From a virus (lineage: Duplodnaviria; Heunggongvirae; Uroviricota; Caudoviricetes), in the IMG/VR virus record IMGVR_UViG_3300020582_000005: a stretch of 64,000 bases of DNA; one strand, written 5' to 3'. Position 1 is the first letter of the stretch. The number at the start of each line of letters is the position of its first letter. Below are positions 4,138-29,312 of this stretch, piece by piece. The notes beneath the pieces were generated by a model. It ran no database searches and was not told the origin of the DNA. It worked only from the letters and a program-made list of their open reading frames with translations. The translations under genes were made by a program, and so were the position numbers.

Positions 4138-4138
4138 A

Positions 4139-6496: not shown

Positions 6497-7173
6497 GAAC
6501 GTTGATAGCAGTAAAGTCGTGTCACGATGATCTAGATAAGGGTTGTCACGATACTATTAAACAAACTTGGGGTAAAAATGTTCAATGTGATTTACGTTTC
6601 TTCGTGGGTCAGAAAGTTGGAACACCTTGGAGATGGGGCGGTCTTTTAGATACTATTTATTTAGACGTGAAAGACGATTATAATAGTTTGCCTCAAAAAA
6701 CAAAACGAATCCTTCAGTGGTCTTTTGGGAGGGATTACGATTTTATATTTCTTTGCGATGTAGACACATTCTTGATCCCGTATAAATTATTTCAAACTGA
6801 TTTTCAGAAATTTGATTATTCGGGACGATTTGGTTCTTCGCCCAAGATAGGGTCTACTTTTCACTTTAAGGATGGAAGAGGAATTCATCACTTTCATTGC
6901 CACCCGTGGGCGTCAGGGGGATTTGGGTATGCGCTGTCCCGTAAAGCAGCTGAAATAGTTATTCGTACAGAATCTGGAATGTGGGCCGAGGACATGATGG
7001 TCGGCAATTGTCTTGGCCCTGAGATTCAGTCTGGTAATGTGACGGCGAGTGATTTAATGAGATTCGAGAATGAAGCAAGCTGGCATTATCCGGCGCATAA
7101 ACTTGGGTGGACTCGGGAACGAATGAAACTGTGGATGTGTGAAATGTATAAGGAGCATTTCTTTGATAGTTAG
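6469..7173 (+). CDS. Fringe-like (GT31-like DxD) glycosyltransferase, paralog 1
   Basis: Shares D..KIKQTWGK, YDFIFLCDVDTF.IP, FDYSGR, GGFGYALSRKAAE and WHY motifs with the ORFs at 12646, 13308 and 15678. Confidence 0.55.
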   Translation: MWIGSKVSVRTLIAVKSCHDDLDKGCHDTIKQTWGKNVQCDLRFFVGQKVGTPWRWGGLLDTIYLDVKDDYNSLPQKTKRILQWSFGRDYDFIFLCDVDTFLIPYKLFQTDFQKFDYSGRFGSSPKIGSTFHFKDGRGIHHFHCHPWASGGFGYALSRKAAEIVIRTESGMWAEDMMVGNCLGPEIQSGNVTASDLMRFENEASWHYPAHKLGWTRERMKLWMCEMYKEHFFDS

Positions 7174-7918
7174 ATTAACTGGTGGCTTAGGAAATCAGTT
7201 GTTCATGTACGCATTCGGAAGATCAGTTGCAGCGATAGCTAATGAACCTTTGAAGTTTCATTGGTGTCGTTCAACGTGGGATTATGCTCTTGAACCCTTT
7301 CATCTTCCAATAATACTAGGTTCTCCTGATGGAGCGGAGCTTACATATGAAGAGTCAGGATTCTTTTACGATTCAAAAATAGCTAGTGGAATAAGGGTAT
7401 CTTCCAGACCTCGTCCATGTGAAAGAATTTATTTTCGTGGTTATTGGCAGAGCGAAAAATATTTCAATGTAGATTTGATTAGAAAAGATTTCGATTGGTG
7501 GGTTAACTCTCCGCTGAGAGTACAGTTTAGAAACAAAGCCTTCATTCACGTCCGTCGTGGTGATTATCTAAATCGAGGTACTAAGGAATTCCATGGATCG
7601 CTTCCATTGGAATATTATCAAGCGGCAGTTGCCTATATTAAAGAGCGTGTTCCTGATATAACTTTTGAAGTCTTTACAGATGATCCCGACATGAAAGAGT
7701 TCATGGGTTATCCTGTAGTTTCAACTGGAAATCAGCATCTAGATTTACACACGATGACTAAGTATTCTCATGCAATCTTGGCTAACTCTACATTTTCGTG
7801 GTTCGGGGCATGGTTAGGCGAGCATTCAAGTCAAATTGTTATAGCTCCAAAGAAATGGTTTCAAGATGAAACAATTAATACTTCTGATTTAGTACCTGAT
7901 CGCTGGATAAGGATTTAA
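7139..7918 (+). CDS. GT11 alpha-1,2-fucosyltransferase-like
   Basis: N-terminal IVRLTGGLGNQLFMYAF and the signature FIHVRRGDYL of GT11 FutC/WbsJ-type enzymes. Confidence 0.8.
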   Translation: MKCIRSISLIVRLTGGLGNQLFMYAFGRSVAAIANEPLKFHWCRSTWDYALEPFHLPIILGSPDGAELTYEESGFFYDSKIASGIRVSSRPRPCERIYFRGYWQSEKYFNVDLIRKDFDWWVNSPLRVQFRNKAFIHVRRGDYLNRGTKEFHGSLPLEYYQAAVAYIKERVPDITFEVFTDDPDMKEFMGYPVVSTGNQHLDLHTMTKYSHAILANSTFSWFGAWLGEHSSQIVIAPKKWFQDETINTSDLVPDRWIRI

Positions 7919-7921
7919 ATT

Positions 7922-8374
7922 ATGTCGTCTCAAACTTATAGAGAAACACACCGAGAAATCAATAAAATTAAACAAAGGGAGTGGAGAGCGGCTAATCGAG
8001 AGCACCATCGTGCATATTCACGAAAATACAGTAAAGAACATCCTGAACGACGTAAAGCACAATAAAAGAAGTTACCAGCTAGATACGCTCGTTTGAAGGC
8101 TCACGCTAAAAGTTATGAATTGATTTGTTCAATTTCTTTTGAGCAATACAAATCATTAATAGAGAATCCCTGTTATTATTGCGGAGAAAAATTAGCACTA
8201 TTGCAAACCGGCAGTGGATTAGATCGTATTAATTCTTCCGAAGGTTATACACTTGAAAATCTTCGTGCCTGTTGTATGATATGTAATCAAGCTAAAAATG
8301 TACGTTCAGAAAATGAATTTAGAGAATGGGTAAATAAAATTTACCACTATTGGATTAGCAAGGTGTCTTTATGA
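7922..8374 (+). pseudogene. HNH endonuclease interrupted by an in-frame TAA (N-part 7922-8065, HNH part 8066-8374)
   Basis: ATG at 7922 encodes MSSQTYRETHREINKIKQREWRAANREHHRAYSRKYSKEHPERRKAQ. A TAA follows at 8063-8065, and the same frame continues KKLPARYARLKAHAKSYEL...CYYCGEKLAL...LDRINSSEGYTLENLRACCMICNQAKN (HNH). The downstream part has no in-frame ATG before the HNH motif. Confidence 0.55.
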
Positions 8375-9333
8375 AACGAGCTTTAATTACCGGGGTTTCC
8401 GGACAAACAGGATCGTATTTAGCGGAGTCGCTTCTCGAAAAGGGATATGAAGTTCATGGAATTATACGTCGATCTAGTTCATTAAATACGGGTCGCATAG
8501 ACCATATTTTTAATGATCTACATCTTCATTATGGAGATTTGACCGACGCCAATTCTATTCGTCATATTGTTCAGGAGTCGAAACCAGACGAAGTGTATAA
8601 TCTTGGCGCACAATCACATGTTAAAGTTTCATTTGAGTTGCCGGTTTATACTGCCGAAGCTACCGGTCTAGGTGCTTTGAATATGTTAGAAGCTACTACT
8701 CAATATGGTCACGCTAAATTTTATCAAGCCTCATCAAGTGAGTTATTCGGAAAAGTTGTCGAAACTCCTCAGAAAGAAACTACTCCGTTCTGGCCACGTA
8801 GTCCTTACGGCATCGCAAAACAATTCGCATATTGGAGTACGGTGAACTATCGTGAAGCTTATAATATGTTTGCTTGTAATGGGATTCTTTTTAATCATGA
8901 GTCGCCTCGTAGAGGTGATACGTTTGTCACACAGAAAATAGTCAAAGCAGCTGTTCGGATCACTCAAGGTAAGCAGGACAAACTTTTCCTAGGTAATCTG
9001 GATGCCCGAAGGGATTGGGGCTACGCCAAGGATTATGTTGAGGCTATGTGGCTTATGCTTCAACAAGATAAACCAGATGATTACGTGATCGCCACGGGCG
9101 AAACCCACTCCATAAAAGAGTTCTTGACAGAAGCCTTCAGCTATGTTAATCTAGACTGGACTAAGTATGTAGAGATCGATTCTAAGTATTATCGCCCCGC
9201 TGAAGTGGATTTGTTATTGGGAGACGCTTCAAAGGCTAGACGACAGTTAGGTTGGGAGCCACGAGTGAAGTTTAAAGAGTTGGTTAAAATTATGATGGAA
9301 GCGGAGTTAAATGCTCGATCTTTTAATTCGTGA
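8371..9333 (+). CDS. gmd: GDP-mannose 4,6-dehydratase
   Basis: Near end-to-end similarity to bacterial Gmd: [74 protein letters not shown]. Confidence 0.95.
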
Positions 9334-10309
9334 CGCCGAAGAAACTTTAAACATAGTTGACTACAGTCCACTAGATGGTGCTCGTGTCTTTATTTCTGGG
9401 GCCACAGGTTTGATCGGTATGCACTTGATGACAATTTTGTACGTTCTTAAACAGCGAGGGTATAAGATAGAAGCTTTTGGACAGTATCATAACGAGCCTG
9501 CGTGGTATACTAACCAACTTGCAAAACGGGCTGGATTTAATCTCTATCACGATTCAATGCGATTTGTATCAGCCGATATTATTATTCATGCGGCTGGATA
9601 CGGTCAACCTGTCATTTTTATGCAAAATCCAGCAGATACAATCCATGTAAATACAACTATCACGGAACGATTATTAAAATCTCTCGCTCCTGGCGGTCGC
9701 TTCCTTTTTGTAAGTTCGAATGAAGTTTATCATGGTTTACAGAAAGAATTCGCTACGGAAGAAGATATCGGGAGCACTACTCCTTACCATCCACGGGCAG
9801 GTTATGTCGAAGGAAAACGAAGCGGTGAAGCCATAACTTATGCCTATCGTAAAAATGGAGTAAATGCCTCTTCTGCCCGGTTAAATTTGACTTATGGCCC
9901 AGGCGTTCGTAAGGATGATAAACGTGCTTTGAGCCAATTTATTGATCAGGCGATCACGAAGAATCATATTGAGATGAAGTTTTCAGGCAAGGAAATGAGA
10001 ACTTGTTGTTACGCCAAAGATGTCGCAACGATGCTCTGGAAGGTTGTTCTGCACGGCACTAAACCCGTCTATAACGTTGGTGAGCGCTCTACCACTAGTA
10101 TTGCTGAATTAGCTACGATTGTTGCCCGATTAACTAATTCAACTATTCACATTCCGGAAGAGGATAAAGAATTACCCGGTTCCCACGCCTTACCTAGAAT
10201 GGATATCGGTTTAATGGAAGCGGATATGGGAAAGATGAACTATACCACTTTGGAAGAAGGTCTGAAGAGAACAATTGAGTGGCAACGGAGATTATATGGA
10301 TCATTTTAA
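9311..10309 (+). CDS. NAD(P)-dependent extended-SDR epimerase/reductase (Fcl/ColC/Rmd-like)
   Basis: [15 protein letters not shown] (Rossmann fold) and a Y-x-x-x-K motif (YVEGK). It sits directly after gmd. The exact activity cannot be told from sequence alone. Confidence 0.6.
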
Positions 10310-10838
10310 GATTGAAGAGGAAAAGTTTAATGGACGTGTCAAGTTGATTCGTTCCACTTGCTTTGAAGATGAGCGTGGATATTTCAACATCACTTATCTC
10401 GATAATGAAATGCAAGAAATGGGACTTCCACGATTTGTTCGTGATCTTCACTCTCGGTCAATGAAAAATGTTATACGAGGTTTACACTTTCAATTTACGC
10501 CCCCAATGGCAAAATTAATGCGGGTCACTCAAGGAAGAATTTTTATGGTAGCAGTCGATGTTCACAAACAGTCCGCTACATTTTTACAGTACTATAGTCT
10601 TATTATGCAGAAGGGAGACAAACTTTTACTTTGGGGTGATTCTTATATCGCTCGTGGATTTTGTGCTTTACAGGAATCTGAAGTACAGTACAAATGTTCT
10701 AGTCATTTCGACAAAGCATCTGATGACGCAATTCTATGGAACGATCCTATGATAGGTATCGATTGGCCAGTTAAAGACCCCACTTTATCAGATAGGGATA
10801 GGCACGCCATGACTGCGAAGGAGTTTTTCCATCTATGA
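10275..10838 (+). CDS. RmlC-like cupin sugar-nucleotide 3,5-epimerase
   Basis: FEDERGYF, GLHFQ, VTQGRIFMVAVDV and WNDPMIGIDWP resemble dTDP-4-dehydrorhamnose 3,5-epimerase family enzymes. Confidence 0.7.
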   Translation: MSGNGDYMDHFKIEEEKFNGRVKLIRSTCFEDERGYFNITYLDNEMQEMGLPRFVRDLHSRSMKNVIRGLHFQFTPPMAKLMRVTQGRIFMVAVDVHKQSATFLQYYSLIMQKGDKLLLWGDSYIARGFCALQESEVQYKCSSHFDKASDDAILWNDPMIGIDWPVKDPTLSDRDRHAMTAKEFFHL

Positions 10839-11992
10839 GATCGATAACTTTAGGACATTTGAATATCAGTGAAAACGGAAAACGTTATGTTAATAATGCG
10901 TTGAATGCTAATCGTTTAAGTCGTGGTAAATTTACCGAGTCGTTTGAATTTTCTTTCGCTGAACTACATCAAGTAAAACATGCGTTATTTTGTAATAGCG
11001 GTACATCTGCGCTACAAATCGCTTTGGCGGCATTGAAAGAAGTTTACGGATATAAAGATGGGGACGAAGTCATTGTTCCAGCAACTACGTTTATCGCTAC
11101 GTCTAATATCGTCCTACAAAATAATCTTAAACCCGTGTTCGTTGATGTCAGTCCTGAAACTTATAATATCAATCCATTCAAAATTTCAAAAGCTATTACT
11201 GATAGAACACGTTGTATCATTCCTGTTCATTTGTTTGGCTTGCCAGCGGATATGCACAACATAATGATTACTGCGAAGGGTTACGGATTGCAGGTACTTG
11301 AAGATTCGTGTGAAACTATGTTTGCTACACAAAATGGTAAGTCAGTTGGAAGTTTTGGAGATTTAGCTTGTTTCTCAACTTATGTTGCTCATTTAATTGT
11401 CGGTGGAGTTGGTGGTATTGTCACTACATCGAATTCTAAATTATACGACATATGTCGCAGTTTGATGAATCATGGTCGTAGTACAGATTATATTTCAATA
11501 GATGATGATGATAACCTCCCGACGGACATTATGGATCGACGTTACGAATTTGAAAGAGTAGGCTATTCTTATAGAGCCACAGAGCTAGAAGCCGCCCTCG
11601 CTTTAGCAGAATTAGAACAACGTGAAAACAACATTATAGCACGGCGACGAAATGCCCACGAATTGACTACACTGTTGAAGGATGTTAATTGGTTGCAGTT
11701 ACCGAAAATTCCCGAAAAGATGACGCATAGTTTTATGATGTATCCTATAGTCGTTAAACCTTTTACAAAGAAACGAAATGATTTTCTTATTTATTTAGAA
11801 CGAAACGGAATTGAGACGAGATATATGTTTCCTCTGTTGAGTCAACCGATTTATCAGAAATTATTTCCACGAGAAGAGTCTAAACACTATAACGCTGTGG
11901 GATTAGCAGAACGGGGCTTTTTTATAGGAATTCACCAAGGTCTAAATGGTGATGACATGCAGTATATCGCTAAAGTGATCAAGGATTATTAA
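10835..11992 (+). CDS. DegT/DnrJ/EryC1-family PLP enzyme with His in place of the Schiff-base Lys (ColD/E1-like putative sugar 3-dehydratase)
   Basis: Aminotransferase class-V-like fold. The segment CFSTYVAHLIVGGVGG aligns by eye to the SF-x4-K-x4-GEGG motif (ArnB FSFHAIKNITCAEGG), with H at the Lys position. Confidence 0.7.
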   Translation: MRSITLGHLNISENGKRYVNNALNANRLSRGKFTESFEFSFAELHQVKHALFCNSGTSALQIALAALKEVYGYKDGDEVIVPATTFIATSNIVLQNNLKPVFVDVSPETYNINPFKISKAITDRTRCIIPVHLFGLPADMHNIMITAKGYGLQVLEDSCETMFATQNGKSVGSFGDLACFSTYVAHLIVGGVGGIVTTSNSKLYDICRSLMNHGRSTDYISIDDDDNLPTDIMDRRYEFERVGYSYRATELEAALALAELEQRENNIIARRRNAHELTTLLKDVNWLQLPKIPEKMTHSFMMYPIVVKPFTKKRNDFLIYLERNGIETRYMFPLLSQPIYQKLFPREESKHYNAVGLAERGFFIGIHQGLNGDDMQYIAKVIKDY

Positions 11993-11998
11993 AGCAAA

Positions 11999-12649
11999 AT
12001 GACGATTCAAGAAATAAGACGTGATGTAATCATTAGTATTTTAAAGGATGTAAAGTTTCCGGTTATCGTGGAAGCCGGAGCCTGTCACGGTGAAGATAGC
12101 CAAATGTTAACTTATGCAGCTACTTATCCCGAGAATATTATCCACGTAATGATCGAACCCGATCCCGAGAACTGTGAAGTTATTCGACGAACCGCACTAG
12201 ACATTCCAGGCAGACGCTTGATTGAAGGCGCAGTAGCCAAATATTCTGGTTTTAGAAAGTTTAATCGTGCAATTGAAATAAAAACTGGTTATCGATTTTG
12301 TGGATCGTTATTAGAACCACGGAAAGATGCATTTCGGCAGATGAACTTCGATGAGGTGATTGAAGTTCAATGCTACACTCTCGATGAGATTTTTCAGCAA
12401 CAGGGCTTAACTCACGTCGATTTACTGTGGGCCGACGTTCAAGGCGGGGAAAGAGGAATGCTTGAAGGCGGCGAAGCGGCCCTTTCTAAAACTCGTTACT
12501 TGTTTATGGAAGTCGTTAAAGAAGAACAATATGTAGGAGAAGCTCTTAAAGAAGAATTAGTTTCCTTATTAGAACAAAGAGGCTGGTCAATCGTAATCGA
12601 TTTCGACACTATTGGCGATGTTCTGATGAAAAATGAGAGGTATCAATGA
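11999..12649 (+). CDS. FkbM-family methyltransferase
   Basis: IVEAGACHGEDS is a glycine-rich SAM motif. The protein is the size of FkbM-domain proteins and lies in the sugar locus. Confidence 0.5.
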   Translation: MTIQEIRRDVIISILKDVKFPVIVEAGACHGEDSQMLTYAATYPENIIHVMIEPDPENCEVIRRTALDIPGRRLIEGAVAKYSGFRKFNRAIEIKTGYRFCGSLLEPRKDAFRQMNFDEVIEVQCYTLDEIFQQQGLTHVDLLWADVQGGERGMLEGGEAALSKTRYLFMEVVKEEQYVGEALKEELVSLLEQRGWSIVIDFDTIGDVLMKNERYQ

Positions 12650-13350
12650 GAGTTTTAATAGCGATTATTTCTTTTCAGGGAGACGCTGAAAACGGGAATC
12701 ACGATAAGATTCGGCAAACTTGGGGGAAAGACGTTGCTATAACCGGTGCCGATCTACGCTTTTTCCTTGGGCGACGTGATAAGTTTTATAAGCCAAAAGC
12801 TGATGAAACATCGATTCCTTGGCAAGAGGACGGAACTAGGAAGTGTCAGCACCCTTATTGGACAGCCGTAGCAGGCTGCTGCGTCGAATACTGGCAAGTC
12901 CTTTATAGAGGAATTCTTGATTGGTCGCTACGTAACGGATACGATTACACGTTTCTCGCTGAAAATGACACTTTCTTGATACCACGGAAGTTGATGAAAA
13001 GTGGTTTTGAAAACTACGATTTTTCTGGCTGGATGATGTATACCCACTCAGATAAGCCTGATCAATATTACGTTGAACCCGGTGCTGGATATTTTCTTTC
13101 ACGACGAGCCTCTGAAGCTATTCTGAAAACAACTCCGGATCATTTGCATTTTGAAAATCTTGCTTGCGACGTTTTAAAGCCGATGCAGGAACGTGGGGAA
13201 ATGACAATTAAGTCTCTAGATCATTTTTGGAACGAGACTTCGTGGCACTATAGAGCGCAAGGAATTATAGACCCGGTGATTAGAGACGGCTATCCGGTAG
13301 GCTCTCGTTGGATGTTCGATATGTATCGGCAGCACGGAGCAGATCAATGA
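12646..13350 (+). CDS. Fringe-like glycosyltransferase, paralog 2
   Basis: HDKIRQTWGK, YDYTFLAENDTFLIP, YDFSGW, AGYFLSRRASE, WHY. Confidence 0.55.
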   Translation: MRVLIAIISFQGDAENGNHDKIRQTWGKDVAITGADLRFFLGRRDKFYKPKADETSIPWQEDGTRKCQHPYWTAVAGCCVEYWQVLYRGILDWSLRNGYDYTFLAENDTFLIPRKLMKSGFENYDFSGWMMYTHSDKPDQYYVEPGAGYFLSRRASEAILKTTPDHLHFENLACDVLKPMQERGEMTIKSLDHFWNETSWHYRAQGIIDPVIRDGYPVGSRWMFDMYRQHGADQ

Positions 13351-14048
13351 GAATTCTAGTGGCTGTTTATTCTCATTCCGGAGATTCCGTCAATGGAAAC
13401 CATCAAAAAATTCGAAATACCTGGGGTAAACATGTAGCGCCTTGGGATGTTCGCTTTATGATTGGGCACCGAGACGCCCCAGGCTGGCATATCCAGAACG
13501 ATGAAGTGCTTTTACCTGAACGAGCCAATCGTGCTTGCGGAAATGACTGGTTACTTTGGAATCTTTATTATCAAGAATTAACTATTGAGATGCTTCGGTG
13601 GTCTTTAGAACAAGGTTACGATTTCACGTTTCTTTGCTGCAATGACACGTTCATTATCCCTAGTAAACTGAAAGCGACAGACTTCGAAAAATATGATTAC
13701 TCGGGGATTTTTTATCCTCTTAGTCAGTTAGGAGAAACTTTTTACGAGCCTTTCTATAAGCGGCAGGCTTATGTAGCAGCGGACGCAGGCACGGGCTGGT
13801 TTATGAGTCGTAAAGCATCGGAAATAGTTCTTAACAGTACTCAGGGTGAGTATTTCGGCACTAGTGATCAATATACAGGACAAGTTTTGGGACCGTATAT
13901 TAAGTCTGGAACAATTACTGCAAAGAATCTAGATAATTTTCATCACGTAGCCGCTTGGCATTACCGGGAAGAAGAGAATGCTTTATCAACTGGATATTCT
14001 ATCGGTTCCACTTGGATGCATCAAATGTATCAGAAATACGGGGGATAG
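13308..14048 (+). CDS. Fringe-like glycosyltransferase, paralog 3
   Basis: HQKIRNTWGK, YDFTFLCCNDTFIIP, YDYSG, GWFMSRKASE, WHY. Confidence 0.55.
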   Translation: MDVRYVSAARSRSMRILVAVYSHSGDSVNGNHQKIRNTWGKHVAPWDVRFMIGHRDAPGWHIQNDEVLLPERANRACGNDWLLWNLYYQELTIEMLRWSLEQGYDFTFLCCNDTFIIPSKLKATDFEKYDYSGIFYPLSQLGETFYEPFYKRQAYVAADAGTGWFMSRKASEIVLNSTQGEYFGTSDQYTGQVLGPYIKSGTITAKNLDNFHHVAAWHYREEENALSTGYSIGSTWMHQMYQKYGG

Positions 14049-14909
14049 ATGGAAAATAAAACTTACAAACCTGTCATCTACGCTAACCACGAGTTGAATG
14101 TTCCTGAATTGAATTGGAGAGCATCGATTTCGGTAGACTACTTCAATTTTGAAGATCGAACGCCGTACAAAATATTTTGGCAGTTAGAGCCTGAAGACAT
14201 CACTCCAACGGAAAAGAAACTCATCAAGAATCACCAATTCTACGATCTCATTTTGACTTACAATAATACTGTACTAAGTGAATGCTCTAATGCTGTTTTC
14301 TTTTTGAACAATGGAGTTTGGACCCACGAAAGTGATGTATCACAGAAAAAATTTGCCGTTTCCTTTTTGACCAGTGCAAAGACGATGTGTCCTGGGCATA
14401 AATTCCGTGTCATGACTTTTAAGAAATTACAACAGTATTTAGAGGGAAGTAATTCTGCCCTACCTTGTCCTTTAACGATGCACATGTCCCCTCCTTATCT
14501 ACCCGACAAGCGGAGTATGCTAATACCATTTCAATATGCAATTTCAATTCAAAATTCTCAGATGCATAACTACTTCTCGGAAATTCTTTTAGATTGTTTT
14601 GCTACTAAGACGATTCCTATTTTCTGGGGAAGCGCCAATGTCGGAGAATTTTTTAATCCAGACGGCATTTTGTCTTTTGGTAATCCTTACGATCCTAGAG
14701 CTAGGACAACCTTGAATGATGTTTTGTTGTCCTTGACACCTGATTTTTATCATTCACCTAAGGTCCAGGCAGCGATAGAAGAAAATTATCTGAAGTCTCT
14801 TACATACTCAGATAGGATAGGCCGTTTGGTTAACGCTATCACAGATTCGTGGACTCCGAAGATAACTAAAATTCATAGTGGAGAACCAAATGTCGCTCCC
14901 AACAGTTAG
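14049..14909 (+). CDS. GT10 alpha-1,3/4-fucosyltransferase-like
   Basis: The C-terminal block YQYAISIQNSQMHNYFSEILLDCFATKTIPIFWGSANVGEFFNP matches the GT10 motif (Y.F.L.FENS...YVTEK......IP.YWGS....FNP). Confidence 0.7.
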   Translation: MENKTYKPVIYANHELNVPELNWRASISVDYFNFEDRTPYKIFWQLEPEDITPTEKKLIKNHQFYDLILTYNNTVLSECSNAVFFLNNGVWTHESDVSQKKFAVSFLTSAKTMCPGHKFRVMTFKKLQQYLEGSNSALPCPLTMHMSPPYLPDKRSMLIPFQYAISIQNSQMHNYFSEILLDCFATKTIPIFWGSANVGEFFNPDGILSFGNPYDPRARTTLNDVLLSLTPDFYHSPKVQAAIEENYLKSLTYSDRIGRLVNAITDSWTPKITKIHSGEPNVAPNS

Positions 14910-15681
14910 CCTAGTTTGTCCAACATATAATCGTCAACAATTTCTTCCTGTGGCTATACGTAGTTTTTTACAGCAGACATATCGACCTCTTGAACTGATT
15001 TTTGTTGATGATAGTGGTGATTTATCATGGACTCAAAATTTAGATATTCCATTTGTTTATGTCCGTCTGAGTAAACGTACACCGACAGGCACAAAAAGAA
15101 ACATGGGTGCCGATTTAGCCACAGGTGATATAATCGCTAATTGGGATGATGACGACTGGAGTATGGCTCATAGAATTCAAACTCAAGTCATGCACTTAGA
15201 AAATTCTCAGAAAGCCGTCACAGGATACAACGTGACAATATGTTATGATGAAAAGACACGGGGTTTTTATAGGAATCAAGGCGGTCCTCCTTATTTCGCA
15301 TCCGGAACGTCCCAGATGTACTGGAAAAGTTGGTGGCGTGAGCACCCGTATCCAGATGTAACTTTTGGCGAGGATAGCGTTTTCTCTAGAACAGCACGGC
15401 TTAAGGATCAATTAGCTATTTTTAGTCCAGGGAAAATGCTTGTCGCTAGAAAGCATCAAGCTAACACCGATAAAGTACCGCTTAAGTGGCTTAAAAACGT
15501 AGATTCGAGGGAAATTCATACCGACTTTTTCCGGGCGCTGGAAAGTCCGTCGTTTTCAGATACTTACTTGAAAGAAAAACACGTTTGTTATCAAGAGTGT
15601 CACGAGGAACTTGAACGAGATTTCGCTGGACAAATGATAGACTATCGTGTAAACTGGACTCCGGAGATTAAAACCCGATGA
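14878..15681 (+). CDS. glycosyltransferase family 2
   Basis: LSLVCPTYNRQQFLPVAIRSFLQQTY...LIFVDDSGD and a later DDDD motif. Confidence 0.8.
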   Translation: MENQMSLPTVSLVCPTYNRQQFLPVAIRSFLQQTYRPLELIFVDDSGDLSWTQNLDIPFVYVRLSKRTPTGTKRNMGADLATGDIIANWDDDDWSMAHRIQTQVMHLENSQKAVTGYNVTICYDEKTRGFYRNQGGPPYFASGTSQMYWKSWWREHPYPDVTFGEDSVFSRTARLKDQLAIFSPGKMLVARKHQANTDKVPLKWLKNVDSREIHTDFFRALESPSFSDTYLKEKHVCYQECHEELERDFAGQMIDYRVNWTPEIKTR

Positions 15682-16337
15682 AGATATTGGCTGCTGTTGA
15701 GTCTTGTCAGGCAAATCGACATTTGCATCAAGCTATGCTCGATACGTGGCTTGGTACTTTATCCACTATGGATATAGACTGTCGTTTCTTTATCGGCGGT
15801 TTGAGTGAGCCTGAAAATCACCTTGAGGTATGGGTTCCTTGTTTAGATACATATGATAATCTAGCCGTTAAAACGAGAGGAATTTGTAGATGGGCTGCTA
15901 CCAATAATTATGATTTTCTTTTCAAGTGTGATACTGATACCGTTGTTAATCCGAAGCGTCTTTTAGAAAGTGGATTCGAACAATATGATTATATGGGCGC
16001 TGAAAATTGTGATAATCTTCCGCCTAGTTTAAATGCGGCTTTTCCTGAATGCGTCGGAGGAAAAATTTCGTTTGCGAGTGGCGGTGCAGGCTATTGGTTA
16101 AGTCGAGATGCTATGTCCTACGTAGCGAATGGACCACTCGCATCATTTCCAGAAGATGTATATGTTTCTGGGGTATTAGGCGATAACTACATTTATCCGG
16201 TATGGCACAAGGGGTACCGCTGGCGACCAGGATCGAAGATTAAAGGCGCAACAACTTTCCATTTATCTAGTGCATTGCAGGTGAAATACCGCCCTGAGTT
16301 GATGTACGAATATTATAAGAAAATACTTGACAAATAA
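15678..16337 (+). CDS. Fringe-like glycosyltransferase, paralog 4
   Basis: YDFLFKCDTDTVVNP, YDYMG and GGAGYWLSRDA are shared with the other three paralogs. Confidence 0.55.
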   Translation: MKILAAVESCQANRHLHQAMLDTWLGTLSTMDIDCRFFIGGLSEPENHLEVWVPCLDTYDNLAVKTRGICRWAATNNYDFLFKCDTDTVVNPKRLLESGFEQYDYMGAENCDNLPPSLNAAFPECVGGKISFASGGAGYWLSRDAMSYVANGPLASFPEDVYVSGVLGDNYIYPVWHKGYRWRPGSKIKGATTFHLSSALQVKYRPELMYEYYKKILDK

Positions 16338-16355
16338 ACTTAAGTTTGCTATTCT
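16327..16355 (+). promoter_or_regulatory. sigma70-like promoter, TTGACA(16327-16332)-17 nt-TATTCT(16350-16355)
   Basis: One of three near-identical promoter copies. It is followed by the RBS AGTGAGG and the ATG at 16373. Confidence 0.6.
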
Positions 16356-16372: not shown

Positions 16373-16642
16373 ATGGATTACGGACAGTTTCTTGAAGCCT
16401 TGAGTAAAACCACTGGTTGGTTTCTAGAAAAAGATGGGGCTATTAGACGTGGAGAGGGACCGATAATTGGTAATTTAGGTAGCGGTAAGGAGTGTCCGCT
16501 AATGGCTGTTTTCACTGATGGTACTACTTATGATCAACCTTACTCTAGAGAAGTTTGGCACGCTGCTGATAATTGGCCTGGAAATGATAGTCGTAGTCAA
16601 ATTCGTCACGACCTTCTGAAAGCCTGCCACTTGGAGTCGTGA
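16373..16642 (+). CDS. hypothetical protein
   Basis: 89-aa ORF downstream of the promoter and RBS. Confidence 0.5.
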   Translation: MDYGQFLEALSKTTGWFLEKDGAIRRGEGPIIGNLGSGKECPLMAVFTDGTTYDQPYSREVWHAADNWPGNDSRSQIRHDLLKACHLES

Positions 16643-16812
16643 TGGCTAAACTGACAGTTAATTTAAAAGATGTCACTGTCTCGGATATGCGTCGAAATTT
16701 GGCTCGTGTTTTGTCGAAGATGGACGGCACTCTGATGGTTGAGCACGCTTCTTTTTCAGTGGAAATTTTGTTTCCGAAACGAAAACTTCCGAATTTTCCT
16801 AAGGGTGACTAA
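16642..16812 (+). CDS. small hypothetical protein (56 aa)
   Basis: ATG 16642 MAKLTVNLKDVTVSDMRRNLARVLSKMDG.... It ends in TAATG, which overlaps the next start, and is preceded by AGGTGA. Not in the ORF track because it is under 60 aa. Confidence 0.35.
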   Translation: MAKLTVNLKDVTVSDMRRNLARVLSKMDGTLMVEHASFSVEILFPKRKLPNFPKGD

Positions 16813-16988
16813 TGCACATTTTTCATAAATGGGCGAAGTGGGTAACAATTGAAACCCAACGATTCGGTGCTCGCTATCCTTGGACTGCTCCAGGGAAGTA
16901 TGCGTCAATTGGCACCGTAGAAACTCAAAGACGTGTTTGTGAAATTTGTGGCGAAGTTCAATTTAAAACAGTGGAAAGTTCAATTTAG
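16812..16988 (+). CDS. small hypothetical protein (58 aa) with CxxC
   Basis: ATG at 16812, coupled to the previous stop. Contains VCEICGEV. Confidence 0.35.
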   Translation: MHIFHKWAKWVTIETQRFGARYPWTAPGKYASIGTVETQRRVCEICGEVQFKTVESSI

Positions 16989-16995
16989 GTGACTA

Positions 16996-17334
16996 ATGGA
17001 AATTACCCCAGGACAGCGTTTAGATTTATTGTCAGAAATTAAAACCCTTCTTCCTGACGCTGAATTTTCTGTGGAAGAATCTTTTAGGGGGAAAGATATC
17101 GTTTTTCAATCTGTCTGTAGTTGTTATTCTGAGTATACAACTGAGCCATGTTCTTTTGAAGTATGTATCAGCGGAACATTACCTACATCACAGGAAGATC
17201 AATACACGTTAAATCAAGCCGTTCAATCAAAAGTTAGCCGGTGGGTTGAATGTTCTTTAACGTGGTCTGGATGTGAATGTTGTGATGATGAAATTTCGGT
17301 TTGGACTCGTGTTTATCAAAAGAAGGTAAAATGA
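16996..17334 (+). CDS. hypothetical Cys-rich protein
   Basis: 112 aa, preceded by the second AGGTGACTAATG junction. Confidence 0.45.
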   Translation: MEITPGQRLDLLSEIKTLLPDAEFSVEESFRGKDIVFQSVCSCYSEYTTEPCSFEVCISGTLPTSQEDQYTLNQAVQSKVSRWVECSLTWSGCECCDDEISVWTRVYQKKVK

Positions 17335-17504
17335 AAGACGAACGTACTGGACAGAAAAAGCCGTCTTATCAAAGAAAGAATCCTCGCTCGCATGATTTGT
17401 ATGTAGAGCGAAAGCAAGCTCGTAATCAGGCTCGACCGAAGCAACAATTTCTTGGTGTTAATATTCAAACTGGACTAGGATTAGGGTGGACACGCAATGG
17501 CTAA
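17301..17504 (+). CDS. hypothetical basic protein
   Basis: 67 aa, K/R/Q-rich. Confidence 0.35.
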   Translation: MDSCLSKEGKMKDERTGQKKPSYQRKNPRSHDLYVERKQARNQARPKQQFLGVNIQTGLGLGWTRNG

Positions 17505-17724
17505 AATTGGAAATGTTAATTTGATTCTTGTTGGCGATCAACCTGTATTTACCCTTAAGCCGGGTACACTCGTAAAGTATCAGGAACAATTCTGTATTCG
17601 TAATTGGGCGGGGATGGGCACTCTCGACGGTCAATTGTGGTGGAATAATGAAACTATTGAGAGACTTAAAATGTGCGCTGAAGTTCTGCCGTTTGGTGCC
17701 ACGGTAGAAGTGATTCAGAAATGA
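17497..17724 (+). CDS. hypothetical protein
   Basis: 75 aa, overlapping the neighbouring stop and start. Confidence 0.45.
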   Translation: MAKIGNVNLILVGDQPVFTLKPGTLVKYQEQFCIRNWAGMGTLDGQLWWNNETIERLKMCAEVLPFGATVEVIQK

Positions 17725-18032
17725 GATTGATTAATAAAGATTTGGAGCGAGCCTTTCGTAAATTTAACAAAGATTATTTTAACGATGAGCTTCCCCCTGT
17801 CCTAATTAAATTCGATACTGACAAAGAATTAGATTCGGAGACTTACGGAGAGTTTACCGTTGATGGAGAAATTCTAATCAACGAATCTCTCCGAGAAATT
17901 CCAGAATACTGCTTCATAGTCGTTCTGCACGAAATGTCTCATGTAAAGCATCCTATGAATAGCCACGGGATTGCTCATAAAGCAGTTCTCTACGATCTGT
18001 TTATGCAGGGGGCATATGATCCATATCTTTAA
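17721..18032 (+). CDS. SprT-like zinc metallopeptidase
   Basis: The sequence YGEF...INESL...VLHEMSHVKH carries an HExxH in SprT-domain context. Confidence 0.6.
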   Translation: MRLINKDLERAFRKFNKDYFNDELPPVLIKFDTDKELDSETYGEFTVDGEILINESLREIPEYCFIVVLHEMSHVKHPMNSHGIAHKAVLYDLFMQGAYDPYL

Positions 18033-18294
18033 ACTTTTGTTTGCATTTTTGATAGTTCTATTCTGGATTCTTTTTGTGGTAGCTTTAAGTGCCACGCCAG
18101 TTAGGACATTGACTCTTCCTCTCGATTGCCGTAAATCTAGCATTCAAGCTGGCGTCCCTGTCCGAAGAAACAGTGACGGTCGAATCACCAAGGTGGATGT
18201 TTGCGGAGCCGCAGATTCTGGAGACGATACATTTCGAGATATTCCTTATCAGGCACAGTGTGAACAATTCGATACAGGGCAAATTTGCCGATGA
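18016..18294 (+). CDS. possible small secreted/membrane Cys-rich protein
   Basis: MIHIFKLLFAFLIVLFWILFVVALSA (signal/TM) followed by a Cys-containing tail. It fills the 250-nt gap before the NADAR gene. The start is uncertain. Confidence 0.3.
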   Translation: MIHIFKLLFAFLIVLFWILFVVALSATPVRTLTLPLDCRKSSIQAGVPVRRNSDGRITKVDVCGAADSGDDTFRDIPYQAQCEQFDTGQICR

Positions 18295-18713
18295 TCAATG
18301 GATTCACAGGTCGATATACTTTTCTGTCAAATTTCTATATCTATCCGATCAAATGGAGAGATAGAATTCTCATGTCAGCCGAACACGCCTACCAATCAGA
18401 GAAAACGACCGATCCAATTGACCGTGAGACTATCTACAATGCACCAAATCCGTCACAGGCAAAACGATTGGGCGGAAAGAAATATTTACATAGTTTACGT
18501 GCTGATTGGGATCGCATTAAAGATGCTATCATGCTTCAAATTCTTCGAGAAAAGTTTTTCGACTCGGACTTACGTATGAGACTTTTGGAAACCGGTGATC
18601 AGGAGTTAGTTGAAATGAATTGGTGGAATGACACATATTGGGGAGTCTGCAACGGAATCGGTAAGAATAAACTTGGAAAACTTTTAATGCAAGTTAGAGA
18701 GGAAATAAAATGA
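18285..18713 (+). CDS. NADAR (YbiA/DUF1768) domain protein
   Basis: GRYTFLSNFY, SAEHAYQSEK, RLGG and WWNDTYWGVCNG are the conserved NADAR blocks. Confidence 0.8.
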   Translation: MPMINGFTGRYTFLSNFYIYPIKWRDRILMSAEHAYQSEKTTDPIDRETIYNAPNPSQAKRLGGKKYLHSLRADWDRIKDAIMLQILREKFFDSDLRMRLLETGDQELVEMNWWNDTYWGVCNGIGKNKLGKLLMQVREEIK

Positions 18714-19020
18714 AGCATTTAGCTTGTTTAGGAATCGGTTTAAGCATACTCTTATTTGCATTCGCACCATTCTGCCTCATCGTGTTTGCGATTATAAAAC
18801 CAATGATAGGAGTACCGATATTCGTAATTCTTTTTGCTTATTTACTAGGTTTAGCATTTACACAATAAGGGAGAAAAATGAACTACATCTGCCATAAATG
18901 TCGTGTTCGTCAACCGGTCAAACAAGATGCTCCTGTACCGAAATGTCAAGACTGCGGGGAACAAATGCAGCCGGATGTCCTGAATGATCAGGAAGCAACT
19001 AAGAAAGGAATTTATCGGCG

Positions 19021-19305
19021 ATGGTAGAAATATCTCATAAACGAGAGCCGTTATGGAGCGGAATTAACGTTTGGGAAGTTGAATACAAAGTATATTGGAA
19101 TAAGCGTTGGGAAGTGCGAAAGAAACTTGTCATCGGTTTAAATTCTACATCAGGATGTGAAATGGAAGCGTTTATGTCTGTTGCCGCCGTATATGGTGGT
19201 CGAAAGATTAAAGCTCTGTCAGCAAGATTTCTCGGAACCGGCGTATTAGCTGGACACCCTTGGGAGCTTCAAAAGAAACATTGGCAGGATTTAAATAAGG
19301 CTTGA
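19021..19305 (+). CDS. hypothetical protein
   Basis: 94-aa ORF. Confidence 0.4.
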   Translation: MVEISHKREPLWSGINVWEVEYKVYWNKRWEVRKKLVIGLNSTSGCEMEAFMSVAAVYGGRKIKALSARFLGTGVLAGHPWELQKKHWQDLNKA

Positions 19306-19330
19306 CAATATTCTGAAAGTTTGATATTCT
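19302..19330 (+). promoter_or_regulatory. sigma70-like promoter, TTGACA(19302-19307)-17 nt-TATTCT(19325-19330)
   Basis: AAATAAGGCTTGACAATATTCTGAAAGTTTGATATTCT is almost identical to the copy at 30513-30550. The RBS GTGAGGA and the ATG at 19348 follow. Confidence 0.65.
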
Positions 19331-20657: not shown

Positions 20658-21158
20658 ATGCGAATTAACTTATTCGGCGGTCCAGGCAGTGGAAAGAGTA
20701 CTACGGCAGCATGGTTGTTCTCGGAATTGAAGCGGCGATTGGTAAGTGTAGAGCACGTCAATGAGTACGTCAAAGCATGGGCCTACGCCAAGCGACCTGT
20801 CGATCACTATGATCAGATTTACATCATGGCGAAGCAGATGCAGTATGAGTACCGGTTTCTGAAGAATGGTATCAAGAACACTGTAACAGATTCGCCGGTT
20901 GATTTGAGTATCGTCTACTCGCCGGAACATTTGAAGCCAGCGATGCGTTTGCTTAGTCAGACGTACAATCAAGACTTCGCTTATGAGAACATTTTCATTC
21001 GTCGGGGAGATAAGCCGTACGTTCAAGAGGGACGATATCAAGATAAGATACGAGCTTTGGAAGTTGATCATAAAATCAAGGAAGAAATTGGCACCATGGT
21101 AGAGTTTGACTTCGGTGATCCGGCTGTGCTAGACTATGTTTTAGCGAGAATCAGATGA
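20658..21158 (+). CDS. P-loop kinase (T4 Pnk-kinase/AAA_33-like)
   Basis: The Walker A sequence INLFGGPGSGKSTTAAWL closely resembles the polynucleotide kinase and nucleotide kinase GxPGSGKST motif. Confidence 0.6.
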   Translation: MRINLFGGPGSGKSTTAAWLFSELKRRLVSVEHVNEYVKAWAYAKRPVDHYDQIYIMAKQMQYEYRFLKNGIKNTVTDSPVDLSIVYSPEHLKPAMRLLSQTYNQDFAYENIFIRRGDKPYVQEGRYQDKIRALEVDHKIKEEIGTMVEFDFGDPAVLDYVLARIR

Positions 21159-24833: not shown

Positions 24834-25190
24834 ATGAATAGACGAACATCAAATCCGTATGTAGAAAATTTTACAGATAGGGAAGATATTATCAACAACT
24901 ACCATGCTCCTGATGACGCCCTGAAAGGAGCTAAGATATATCTAGCTTGGTATGGCTACGGCAATTACGACGGTCAATCGTTAGTGATCTTTGAAAAAGA
25001 CGGCCAGCTTTATGAAGTAAACGGTTCACACTGCTCGTGCAACGGATTAGAGGGGCAGTGGTCGCCTGAAGAAACTTCATGGAAGGCTCTTTCTGGACGT
25101 AACATAGACGACAATCATACAACCGGAGCCGCAGTGGCAAATGAACTTCTGAAGAAATTAGTTAAAAAACATCTTGACAAGAAGAAGTAA
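24834..25190 (+). CDS. hypothetical protein
   Basis: Start at MNRRTSNPYV after the RBS TAGGAGAATAAAA. The earlier ORF-track start overlaps the upstream gene. Confidence 0.4.
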   Translation: MNRRTSNPYVENFTDREDIINNYHAPDDALKGAKIYLAWYGYGNYDGQSLVIFEKDGQLYEVNGSHCSCNGLEGQWSPEETSWKALSGRNIDDNHTTGAAVANELLKKLVKKHLDKKK

Positions 25191-25218
25191 ATTTGTTAAT
25201 CTAACAATAGAGGCGAAC

Positions 25219-26425: not shown

Positions 26426-26552
26426 ACGATCTTATCAAACGCAATTCTGAACTAGAACAAGAGAATATTCAACTAAAGAAACGTGCCGAAAAAGCAGAAC
26501 AAACACTACTAGAAATTCAAGCAGCGTGGAAAACTATCACCAGAATTATGAG

Positions 26553-27518
26553 ATGCTATTCATGAGTTTACCTGGGGCTACAGACGTTGGTGTAGTGATC
26601 GGTCGATTTCAAGTGCCGAATCTTCACGAAGGTCATCGGAGTCTACTCGATTTAGTCGCAACTAGACATAAACGGGTTTTAATTCTACTAGGATCGCCTG
26701 CGTGGAAGGGTGGTAAGAGTGATCCTCTTGACTACCATACTCGGGCATTGATGTTTCATCAAGAGTATCCAGACTTTCTAGTTGCACCAGTGACAGATAC
26801 GCAATCAAATGATCAGTGGTCAGAGCAAGTAGATAAAATTATCCAGAGTGTATTTTCACTTTGTCAAGTGACACTTTATGGAGCACGAGACAGTTTCATC
26901 GATCAATATAATGGGCGATACAAAACAAGCGAAATTATACAGTCTGTTGAATCTTCTGGCACAACTGTTCGAGAATATACAGCAGCCATGCCTCAGGAAA
27001 AAGAAAGTTTCCGTGCCGGTGCAATCTATGGAATTCTAAACAATCCAAGTCTGATAGTGCCATGCGTTGACGGCGCTGTCTTAAGAAAGAGCGAGGATGA
27101 AATTCGAGTTGTATTGATCAGGAAACCAGATGAAAAACTTCTCAAATTTCCTGGTGGGAAAGTGGAATACGATGACAAATCCTACGAATCCGCCGTCAAT
27201 CGAGAAGTCCGAGAAGAAACCGGACTTGAAGTCGGAACCCCGATCTACGTCACGTCCAGTTGTAGTCTGCCTGATTGGAGAGCTATCGGCGCTGGAATTG
27301 CTGTACATACTTCTCTCTTTGCGCTCCGATTTATATATGGCGCTCCCAAAGGTCGAGACGACGCAGCTGAAGCCGGATGGTTCAACCTCTTTGAAATAAA
27401 AGAGGCGCAGATGGAAGATTGCCATAAAAAGTTGTTGACAACTTTGAAAGCTTGGGTTAGTATAAATTCAGGAGACTTCTTCAATGACGAATTTACTGCT
27501 GCAGACCGACTCATATAA
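26553..27518 (+). CDS. nadM: bifunctional NMN adenylyltransferase / Nudix hydrolase (NadM-Nudix type)
   Basis: The N-terminus VGVVIGRFQVPNLHEGH carries the (H/T)xGH nucleotidyltransferase motif. The C-terminal Nudix box is GGKVEYDDKSYESAVNREVREETGLE. The start is uncertain (26526, 26553 or 26562). Confidence 0.8.
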   Translation: MLFMSLPGATDVGVVIGRFQVPNLHEGHRSLLDLVATRHKRVLILLGSPAWKGGKSDPLDYHTRALMFHQEYPDFLVAPVTDTQSNDQWSEQVDKIIQSVFSLCQVTLYGARDSFIDQYNGRYKTSEIIQSVESSGTTVREYTAAMPQEKESFRAGAIYGILNNPSLIVPCVDGAVLRKSEDEIRVVLIRKPDEKLLKFPGGKVEYDDKSYESAVNREVREETGLEVGTPIYVTSSCSLPDWRAIGAGIAVHTSLFALRFIYGAPKGRDDAAEAGWFNLFEIKEAQMEDCHKKLLTTLKAWVSINSGDFFNDEFTAADRLI

Positions 27519-28920
27519 ACTGACACACTTCAAACAATACCCGCCAAAGACACAGTATGTCTACTCTTATCTAGAAAGTCGTGGCGGTCAATTCGACAAC
27601 ACAGTATTCTTTGGTCTGCAATATCTCTTGAAGAAATACTTGGTAGGGAAAGTATTCACACCGAAAGATATAGAAGCTGCAAATCGATTTGCTTTGGCAC
27701 ATTTCAGTCGAACCGATTGTTTCAACTATACCGGATGGTATCAGTTGTACAATAAATACGATGGTGTTCTGCCTATTAAGATTAAGGCAGTTCCTGAAGG
27801 CTCTGTTATTCCAGTTCATAATGTTTTGATGACAATCGAGAATACGGATGCGGACTTCCCGTGGCTGACGAATTATCTCGAAACGATTCTAATGAAGGTG
27901 TGGTATCCGACAACGGTTGCAACCCTGTCTCGGGAAATCAAGAAACTTATCACAGACTATCATACAAAGACAGGTTCAGACCTTAGTGGCATAAATTTCA
28001 AGCTACACGACTTTGGATACAGAGGGGTCAGTTCAGAGGAAACAGCAGGAGTTGGCGGGGCCGCTCATCTTCTTAATTTTCAGGGCACGGATACAATTGC
28101 CGGAATCTTGCATTTGCAAGAATATTATTCTAAAATCGAAGCAAAAGAGATAGTCACATCTACTCTTAAAAATGAGGGTGGTCAATTCCCAGGGCCAGGG
28201 ATGTACGGATTCAGTATTCCTGCAGCAGAGCATTCAACAATCACATCCTGGGGCAAAGATAACGAATATCAGGCAATGAAAAATATGCTTGATCAATATC
28301 CCGGCACTGTGGCCATTGTCAGTGATTCTTACGATTTGAAGGAAGCCGTCAATGTAGTTCTTGGATGGAAACTTCGAAATCAGATCATTCACCGAGATGG
28401 GGCTGTCGTGGTACGTCCAGACTCAGGGGACCCGGCGACTGCTGTAGGAAATGTCCTCGAATGGCTCGATAGTAAATATGGGTCCGAAGTAAATAGTAAA
28501 GGATTCAAGGTTCTTAATCCACACGTTAGAGTGATTCAAGGAGACGGAGTAAACTATGAATCCATCAGAGGGATTCTAGCGCATATCCACAATCGGGGGT
28601 GGGCGGCTGAAAACGTCGCATTCGGCATGGGTGGGGCGCTTCTACAGAGACTGGACCGAGATACGCAACGATTTGCTATCAAATGTTCCTCCATTACAGT
28701 TGACGGTGTGGAAAGAGACGTATGGAAAGAGACGATCACTGATACAAGTAAGGCTAGTAAACGGGGCCGCTTAGTTCTCGGGCACAATGGCAGAGAATTC
28801 ATCACCGTCAAAGCTGAACCCGGTCTGATATACACAAGCGATAATCTAAAAACAGTCTTTGAAAACGGGGAACTAAAAATCGACCAGACGGTAGAAGAAA
28901 TTAGGAAAAGGGCAGAGTAA
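27484..28920 (+). CDS. nadV: nicotinamide phosphoribosyltransferase (NAMPT/NadV)
   Basis: 478 aa. The N-terminus LLQTDSYKLTHFKQYP is typical of NAMPT. Length and domain order fit. Confidence 0.9.
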   Translation: MTNLLLQTDSYKLTHFKQYPPKTQYVYSYLESRGGQFDNTVFFGLQYLLKKYLVGKVFTPKDIEAANRFALAHFSRTDCFNYTGWYQLYNKYDGVLPIKIKAVPEGSVIPVHNVLMTIENTDADFPWLTNYLETILMKVWYPTTVATLSREIKKLITDYHTKTGSDLSGINFKLHDFGYRGVSSEETAGVGGAAHLLNFQGTDTIAGILHLQEYYSKIEAKEIVTSTLKNEGGQFPGPGMYGFSIPAAEHSTITSWGKDNEYQAMKNMLDQYPGTVAIVSDSYDLKEAVNVVLGWKLRNQIIHRDGAVVVRPDSGDPATAVGNVLEWLDSKYGSEVNSKGFKVLNPHVRVIQGDGVNYESIRGILAHIHNRGWAAENVAFGMGGALLQRLDRDTQRFAIKCSSITVDGVERDVWKETITDTSKASKRGRLVLGHNGREFITVKAEPGLIYTSDNLKTVFENGELKIDQTVEEIRKRAE

Positions 28921-29312
28921 TGGGTAGACCTCGTATTTATCCCGTTGAAACGTTGCCGCAAAGAGCACGCATTAACTTTAAACGATGGAGAAATAGTTTA
29001 ACTTTAAAAGAATTTACTTTGAAATTATATACATATCGCTTAAAATACAGGTTCAATTTAACTCCCGAGACTGTAAAGCGAATGTTTGAAAAACAGAGTG
29101 GTTTATGTAAACTATGTAGAGTAGCATTGAAGAAATGGGTTATAGATCACGATCACAAATGTTGTCCCGGCAGGCGATCTTGTGGTAAATGTGTTCGAGG
29201 TCTTTTGTGTATCCCATGCAACGCAATGCTTGGGCAACTCGACCGCATGTTAAGAATCGGATTTAAAAGAATCTGTAAGTATTTGAGGCTAAAGCATGAC
29301 TTGGCTATATGA
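28920..29312 (+). CDS. Endonuclease VII-like HNH nuclease
   Basis: CKLCRVALKKWVIDHDHKCCPGRRSCGKCVRGLLCIPCNAMLG matches the T4 gp49/Endo VII zinc-binding HNH signature. It is a paralog of the gene at 52764-53171. Confidence 0.7.
   Translation: MGRPRIYPVETLPQRARINFKRWRNSLTLKEFTLKLYTYRLKYRFNLTPETVKRMFEKQSGLCKLCRVALKKWVIDHDHKCCPGRRSCGKCVRGLLCIPCNAMLGQLDRMLRIGFKRICKYLRLKHDLAI

Follow-up and report, generated by a model that had tools for sequence, protein, structure and literature searches.

We analyzed a 64,000-nucleotide stretch of viral DNA (IMG/VR record IMGVR_UViG_3300020582_000005), referred to here as the window, with a focus on three consecutive small open reading frames (ORFs) at 17721-18713. 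A reading made previously from the letters of the DNA (the sequence-only reading) had placed these three ORFs here, and our analysis confirmed that they exist at these coordinates, all on the + strand. The genes and features that matter for the analysis are the following:

17721..18032, + strand: ORF-A, predicted SprT/Spartan-type stand-alone zincin, 103 aa
18016..18294, + strand: ORF-B, predicted small exported or membrane-anchored Cys-rich protein, 92 aa
18291..18713, + strand: ORF-C, predicted orphan NADAR with a short YbiA-like core, 140 aa counted from the ATG
16326..16355, + strand: promoter-like motif, copy 1, CTTGACAA-N8-AAGTTTG-N-TATTCT, upstream of the small-ORF cassette
19301..19330, + strand: promoter-like motif, copy 2, where the cassette ends on its downstream side and the next unit begins
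About 6.4-16.3 kb: large glycan-biosynthesis cluster, upstream of the three genes
26526-28920, in a + strand block: NUDIX and NAMPT, downstream of the three genes
29418-29807, in the + strand block, downstream: cREC_REC cyclic-phosphate-processing domain
In the same + strand block as NUDIX, NAMPT, and cREC_REC: AAA_28
30558-31490: integrase

Two minus-strand ORFs, at 17874-18143 and 18085-18282, were discarded, as conservation falls on the + strand ORFs.

The three genes are closely packed. The junctions at 17721, 18291, and 18710 are ATGA overlaps: at the first, the end of a 75-aa ORF directly before ORF-A overlaps the ORF-A start; at the second, the ORF-B stop overlaps the start of the NADAR gene; and at the third, the next ORF begins. 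ORF-A and ORF-B overlap by 17 nt. Because tight packing of this kind extends along the whole small-gene array and is common to the neighboring small ORFs, it is not special to ORF-A, ORF-B, and the NADAR gene. The promoter-like motif, of which further copies lie at 30521 and 25173 (the latter with two mismatches), was found in 4 copies in the window compared to 0 in 100 shuffles and is kept at equivalent places in relatives. At 16326 and 19301, the motif is followed by AAAGTGAGG and an ATG, and these two copies bracket a cassette (16373-19305) of twelve small ORFs that include the three genes. The three genes are, thus, likely cotranscribed along with about nine other small ORFs.

Megablast of the 16-20 kb part of the window gave no match to phage genomes, and the best match of the terminase, in Tunturiibacter phage Tunturi_3, is just 25% identical; hence, the source has no close cultured relative. 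No tRNAs were found in the window. The source is an uncultured, probably temperate soil phage with a genome of roughly 110 kb.

To classify ORF-C, we used profile, structure, and residue comparisons. ORF-C matched the Pfam NADAR family (PF08719) over residues 8-140 with 84.1 bits (gathering score, 35.1; E=1.7e-23), phrog_1017 with E=6.7e-42, and TIGR02464 (riboflavin biosynthesis intermediates N-glycosidase) with 86.8 bits (cutoff, 73.7). The nearest solved structure is that of Escherichia coli YbiA (2b3w; E=3e-20), followed by that of the Phytophthora NADAR (8bau; E=2e-5). Schuller et al. described E43, K50, E125, D130, and W133 as key residues of PnNADAR (PMC11543638). These residues align to E31, K38, E108, D114, and W117 of ORF-C, which are invariant in 10 sequences, including six intact orthologues, a Ruegeria phage protein, NADAR-Bas32, and YbiA. 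The catalytic residues, on which the sequence-only reading had made its NADAR assignment hinge, are accordingly present, and ORF-C is, as judged from its sequence, a genuine NADAR.

The second acidic site of ORF-C is occupied by a Glu, and the protein lacks an N-terminal extension, which makes it YbiA-type rather than DarG1-type. E. coli YbiA, which is 40% identical to ORF-C, likewise consists of the core without the N-terminal extension, with a Glu where PnNADAR has E125; it differs from ORF-C in that it is a chromosomal riboflavin-intermediate N-glycosidase encoded in a LexA-controlled operon (PMC11125620). DarG1, the DarT1-linked antitoxin of the BC4488 subfamily, belongs to the same superfamily as ORF-C and has the catalytic Glu and Lys in common with it, but its second acidic position is an Asp (D171), it bears a basic N-terminal beta1-beta2-alpha1 extension, and its gene adjoins darT1 (PMC11543638). 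ORF-C, by contrast, has the Glu instead of the Asp and no extension (its residue 8 aligns to YbiA residue 25). No Pfam match to an ART or DarT was found among the ORFs neighboring ORF-C. We, therefore, rejected ORF-C as a DarG1 based on the Glu, the missing extension, the lack of a neighboring darT1, and the lack of a PADLOC DarG match. T4 AdfN (gp30.3) resembles ORF-C in the proposed role, i.e., that of an orphan phage NADAR that takes DarT1-derived ADP-ribose off phage DNA, but its specificity is for T-even modified DNA, and it forms a separate clade in which a His replaces the YbiA-type Glu (PMC11543638). T4 AdfN matches no NCBIfam model, and ORF-C has no detectable similarity to T4 gp30.3 (BLASTP E=21), which argues against ORF-C being AdfN-type.

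ORF-A contains the zinc-site motif H70-E71-M-S-H74 … H82-G83. On its own, the protein matched Pfam SprT-like (PF10263) with 17.8 bits and E=0.003, i.e., below the gathering score of 25.6, and a word-indexed search returned four homologues only. A full-library profile search returned 159 cluster representatives at E<=1e-3; with few exceptions, these are stand-alone proteins of 95-125 aa. In an alignment of 85 family members, every sequence has H70, E71, H74, and G97, at least 90% have H82, and the family motif HEMxH-x(7-20)-HG…GAYDxLL reaches the very C-terminus; 76 of the 85 aligned members matched PF10263 (E<=0.01; best E=3.6e-13). The AlphaFold model of ORF-A (pLDDT, 96.9; pTM, 0.89) comprises a helix, a three-stranded sheet, and the active-site helices, and nothing more, and 93 of the 103 residues align to Spartan, all within its protease core. 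As the sequence-only reading had proposed, the HExxH motif is embedded in an SprT/Spartan-type fold, and, based on the model, ORF-A is a zincin that consists of the protease sub-domain of this fold only.

The SprT domain of human Spartan (6mdx) and yeast Wss1 have a Zn-binding/DNA-binding sub-domain as well as further targeting regions, whereas ORF-A ends at residue 103 with the conserved GAYDxxL tail and has no such regions. No DNA-binding or Zn-ribbon part and no other Pfam domain was found up to this last residue. Since ORF-A is without DNA-binding parts, the label of crosslink protease is not justified; the SprT-type clearance of DNA-protein crosslinks that the gene had been suggested to carry out is, thus, not indicated. 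The minigluzincins proabylysin (4jiu), projannalysin (4jix), and selecase (4qhf) are 16-20% identical to ORF-A and have a structural score against it that is below that of Spartan; they are archaeal and without phage context. In tblastn searches, the consensus of the ORF-A family gave no match, and a central family member matched RB43-like phages and actinophages over motif length only (32-37% of the query). The narrow ORF-A alignment used as a locus query returned only 2 loci, both of which were already known. Altogether, the ORF-A family represents uncharacterized, protease-only SprT/Spartan-fold zincins that are essentially confined to viruses. We also observed that, across a wide lineage of uncultured phages, members of the family repeatedly lie at the edge of glycan-biosynthesis clusters. 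Separately, the family shows whole-allele replacement.

The small Cys-rich, secreted-looking ORF that had been noted between the SprT-like gene and the NADAR gene is real and conserved, with 16 homologues, all from the group of the source phage. ORF-B has a hydrophobic N-terminus (Kyte-Doolittle score of 3.26 for residues 8-22), and its AlphaFold model (overall pLDDT, 65.3) has a confident helix at residues 2-24 and is unreliable elsewhere. Among the homologues, the N-terminus varies, while the mature part of about 58 aa is nearly invariant, and C38, C63, C82, and C91 are invariant. ORF-B had no match in Pfam, PHROGs, PADLOC, NCBIfam, or the PDB. From these sequence features, ORF-B has the appearance of a disulfide-bonded protein that is either exported or anchored in the membrane.

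Using tblastn and blastn, we compared 13 distinct genomic contexts of ORF-A relatives. In the list, the percentage after ORF-A is its identity to ORF-A of the window, and the genes are given in the downstream direction:

L003: ORF-A 100%; the same phage as the window
L004: ORF-A 33% (a different allele); 95.8% DNA identity from window position 17998 through ORF-B, NADAR, and three more genes
L002 and L005: ORF-A 95%; ORF-B, one inserted ORF (72 or 85 aa), and NADAR at 73-75%
L010: ORF-A 85%; ORF-B, a 50-aa insert, and NADAR
L006: ORF-A 50%; ORF-B, a 46-aa ORF and a 435-aa RtcB, and NADAR
L009: ORF-A 45%; ORF-B, an 82-aa insert, and NADAR without the first 42 residues (E31 and K38 lost)
L008: ORF-A 45%; ORF-B, then a frameshifted NADAR pseudogene
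L001: ORF-A 95%; ORF-B, with NADAR and the next ORF cleanly deleted
L020: ORF-A 53%; NADAR (59% identical) directly after, and no ORF-B
L017-L019: ORF-A 33-39%; no ORF-B and no NADAR within 4 kb

Of these 13 contexts, 7 have an intact NADAR, 2 have a decayed one, and 4 have none. In L004, NADAR is 97% identical despite an ORF-A of 33% identity, while in L002 and L005, ORF-A is conserved at 95% and NADAR at 73-75%, supporting that the genes have discordant histories. ORF-A is intact in L001, L008, and L009, in which NADAR is deleted, frameshifted, and truncated, respectively. That NADAR has decayed repeatedly in close relatives marks it as an accessory gene of conditional use. Moreover, five relatives have unrelated ORFs (46-85 aa and, in one case, RtcB) between ORF-B and NADAR. 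In a reverse survey, we inspected 5 kb around the 80 best IMG/VR NADAR loci (43-73% identical to ORF-C); 78 of these had no ORF-A relative within this distance, and the 2 loci with an ORF-A-family gene both belong to the group of the source phage. The comparative loci, thus, support that the three genes are separate cassettes in a mosaic region and that, as far as can be judged from these sequences, their adjacency reflects the shared ancestry of one phage lineage together with the absence of the usual inserts in the source isolate. In contexts in which ORF-A is at least 45% identical, NADAR, if present, is always located 0-1.7 kb downstream and in the same transcription unit. Because NADAR is always near ORF-A in this lineage and abuts it in L020 at identities of 53% and 59%, respectively, a loose functional link may exist.

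Homologues of the NADAR were detected by tblastn in 710 phage records, and the closest annotated homologues of ORF-C are phage proteins. The NADARs of T5-like phages (Markadamsvirinae) include bas32_0066 (Escherichia phage IrisVonRoten), i.e., NADAR-Bas32 (QXV80247.1), and bas33_0070 (HildyBeyeler). ORF-C is 49% identical to NADAR-Bas32 over the full length (E=3e-43). NADAR-Bas32 is likewise an orphan NADAR from a phage, is about 140-150 aa long, consists of the YbiA-like core only, and has the same E/K/E/D/W residues; it comes from another phage lineage and host. With 66.3 bits, NADAR-Bas32 is under the 73.7 cutoff of TIGR02464, while ORF-C (86.8 bits) is over it; thus, ORF-C is somewhat more YbiA-like than the validated NADAR-Bas32.

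T4 AdfN strips DarT1-made ADP-ribose from DNA (Johannesman, Carlson and LeRoux, PMC11257639; Nat Commun 2025, PMC11825919). With NADAR-Bas32 and NADAR-Bas60, phage growth on DarTG1 cells is regained by several logs, and both proteins neutralize DarT1 in uninfected cells, but not DarTG2 (PMC11257639). All NADAR classes tested, including YbiA, hydrolyze guanine-ADPr in vitro (Cihlova et al., PMC11125620; also PMC11543638), yet YbiA, although it cleaves G-ADPr in vitro, gives no protection against DarT1 in cells, and neither YbiA nor T4 gp30.3 rescues DarT1 toxicity in uninfected cells (PMC11125620). Based on homology, an anti-DarT1 role is plausible and is the best-supported function for ORF-C; the concept of phage NADARs acting against DarT1 is already published. 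Two observations speak against this role: ORF-C scores over the TIGR02464 cutoff while NADAR-Bas32 scores under it, and the 40%-identical YbiA did not protect cells from DarT1 (PMC11125620). Thus, of the interpretation offered by the sequence-only reading, the anti-DarT part is well supported for the NADAR by its homology to NADAR-Bas32, while the part that joined SprT and NADAR in one module is not.

The explanation that we favor, and that we consider moderately probable, is that the three genes are independent, swappable accessory genes that form no obligate unit, with ORF-C as an anti-DarT1-type NADAR, ORF-A as a minimal protease, and ORF-B as an envelope protein. In the source isolate, ORF-A, ORF-B, and NADAR would merely happen to abut within the 12-gene cassette bracketed by the promoter-like motif. 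A host DarT1-type toxin would put ADP-ribose on guanine bases of the phage DNA, and ORF-C, an orphan NADAR N-glycohydrolase, would most likely cut the ADP-ribose from those guanines, with the substrate and the in vivo role proposed by analogy to the characterized phage NADARs. Removal of the ADP-ribose would restore replication, as shown for AdfN, NADAR-Bas32, and NADAR-Bas60. ORF-A, presumed to be catalytically active, would, unlike Spartan and Wss1, probably cleave its protein substrate without DNA-dependent targeting, and ORF-B, as a small disulfide-bonded protein, would go to the envelope.

Alternatively, the NADAR could act on small molecules derived from ADP-ribose or NAD, such as immune signals or by-products of RNA repair, rather than on DNA adducts, as part of an NAD+/ADPr toolkit. 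We regard this possibility as unlikely, albeit with a real chance of being correct. NUDIX, NAMPT, cREC_REC, and AAA_28 are encoded in the same + strand block, L006 has an RtcB RNA ligase inserted directly upstream of NADAR, and Iyer et al. have argued for soluble ADPr derivatives (PMC9503650). However, the NUDIX, NAMPT, and other NAD genes are located 8-10 kb from NADAR and in other promoter units. Moreover, every phage NADAR tested took guanine-ADPr off DNA, and three countered DarTG1 (PMC11125620 and PMC11257639), while no substrate of the small-molecule kind has been demonstrated for phage NADARs in the cited NADAR studies.

For ORF-A, we considered two specific roles. That this protease serves counter-defense by destroying an immune protein of the host, possibly in loose cooperation with NADAR against an ADP-ribosylating defense, appears distinctly unlikely. 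Slightly less probable again is that ORF-A and ORF-B act as a pair, in which the protease, for example, processes or controls the exported ORF-B and NADAR is an unrelated neighbor. The two genes share 14-17 nt and adjoin each other in 9 of the 13 contexts, and insertions between them were never seen, though insertions are common on either side. However, L004 has swapped ORF-A for the 33%-identical allele and yet has kept ORF-B, and L020 and L017-L019 carry ORF-A without ORF-B. Also, ORF-A has no export signal while ORF-B is predicted to be exported, placing the two proteins in different compartments, and because the ORF-B homologues all come from one phage group, the adjacency may be a matter of shared descent only.

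There is only a slim chance that the NADAR is an auxiliary metabolic gene product, i.e., a YbiA/RibX-type N-glycosidase that destroys reactive intermediates of the riboflavin pathway. The TIGR02464 match over the cutoff and the closest solved structure, that of E. coli YbiA, would fit such a function. On the other hand, riboflavin genes were not seen among the ORFs scanned, the repeated loss and decay of NADAR in close relatives are as for a conditionally useful accessory gene, the closest annotated homologues are phage-borne and one is a validated anti-DarT1 enzyme, and YbiA, too, cleaves G-ADPr in vitro (PMC11125620). Slimmer still is the chance that ORF-A as a crosslink protease and NADAR as a de-ADP-ribosylase jointly strip defense-imposed covalent adducts from phage DNA, as the sequence-only reading had suggested: while both domains are real, share one transcription unit, and remain adjacent in the divergent L020 locus, ORF-A is without the Zn-binding/DNA-binding sub-domain, the allele histories are discordant, NADAR is lost or decayed where ORF-A is retained, unrelated genes lie between them, L017-L019 have ORF-A without NADAR, almost none of the best viral NADAR loci has an ORF-A relative within 5 kb, and DarT adducts are ADP-ribosylated bases and not protein crosslinks (PMC11543638).

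These results advise caution in that two adjoining DNA-adduct-related domains in one phage do not equal a module, as the loci show gene-by-gene mosaicism. No new mechanism is indicated, and the family of small SprT-like proteases and its exported Cys-rich neighbor are reasonable candidates for anti-defense screens. By homology, the orphan phage NADARs acting against DarTG1, a class described recently, would gain a soil-phage member in ORF-C.

The window carries four copies of a promoter-like motif, CTTGACAA-N8-AAGTTTG-N-TATTCT, versus none in 100 shuffles, and the motif is kept at equivalent positions in related contigs. When the copies at 16326 and 19301 were aligned, we observed that both are followed downstream by AAAGTGAGG and then ATG. 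The repeated motif is probably the promoter of the phage's early or middle transcription units. Its copies and the other features considered here are as follows:

16326-16355, 19301-19330, 25173-25202 and 30521-30550, + strand: promoter-like motif
~6469-16337, + strand: large phage-borne glycan-biosynthesis cluster
20658-21158, + strand: AAA_28 P-loop protein
26526-28920, + strand: 330-aa NUDIX protein, then an overlapping NAMPT
28920-29312: endonuclease VII homologue
29418-29807, + strand: cREC_REC (cyclic-phosphate-processing receiver) domain protein
30558-31490, + strand: tyrosine integrase
31548-32483, + strand: SPFH/Band 7 protein

Neither an attachment site nor a tRNA was found in the window. 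The tyrosine integrase and SPFH/Band 7 genes close its + strand block, suggesting a temperate lifestyle.

The glycan cluster encodes a GDP-mannose 4,6-dehydratase (E=1e-139), Galactosyl_T-like proteins, GT11, a second epimerase/dehydratase, a DegT-type aminotransferase and GT2, and in relatives there are, in addition, GT10, a dTDP-sugar isomerase and genes of the E1_dh/transketolase-like type. Distant relatives of the SprT/Spartan-type zincin ORF-A (L017-L020) likewise lie next to sugar, glycosyltransferase or methyltransferase genes.

Both cREC_REC and AAA_28 are families previously tied to NAD/ADPr or RNA-end processing. The NUDIX protein consists of an N-terminal extension of ~180 aa and a C-terminal NUDIX domain, while the NAMPT comprises NAMPT_N plus NAPRTase; this gene pair is similar to NARP2, a phage pathway for NAD+ reconstitution (bioRxiv 10.1101/2024.02.11.579819; PMC13464706).

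Among related loci, the gene for the YbiA-type NADAR enzyme is a frameshifted pseudogene in L008 (3368-3687), a 5'-truncated remnant without the catalytic Glu and Lys in L009 (3602-3907), and missing from L001, where a clean deletion (at 10571) has removed both it and the following ORF. In one relative, L006, a 435-aa RtcB RNA ligase (3407-4714) is inserted immediately 5' of NADAR, which brings to mind the suggestion that NADAR and RNA repair are connected.

A comparison of L004 (2703-3017) with the window (17721-17997) revealed that ORF-A is swapped for an allele of 33% identity, itself identical to P0030, while the 1.6 kb downstream of ORF-A are 95.8% identical. The breakpoint lies within the conserved 3' end encoding GAYDxLL. 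The change in L004 is a whole-allele replacement of the kind known from arms-race genes.
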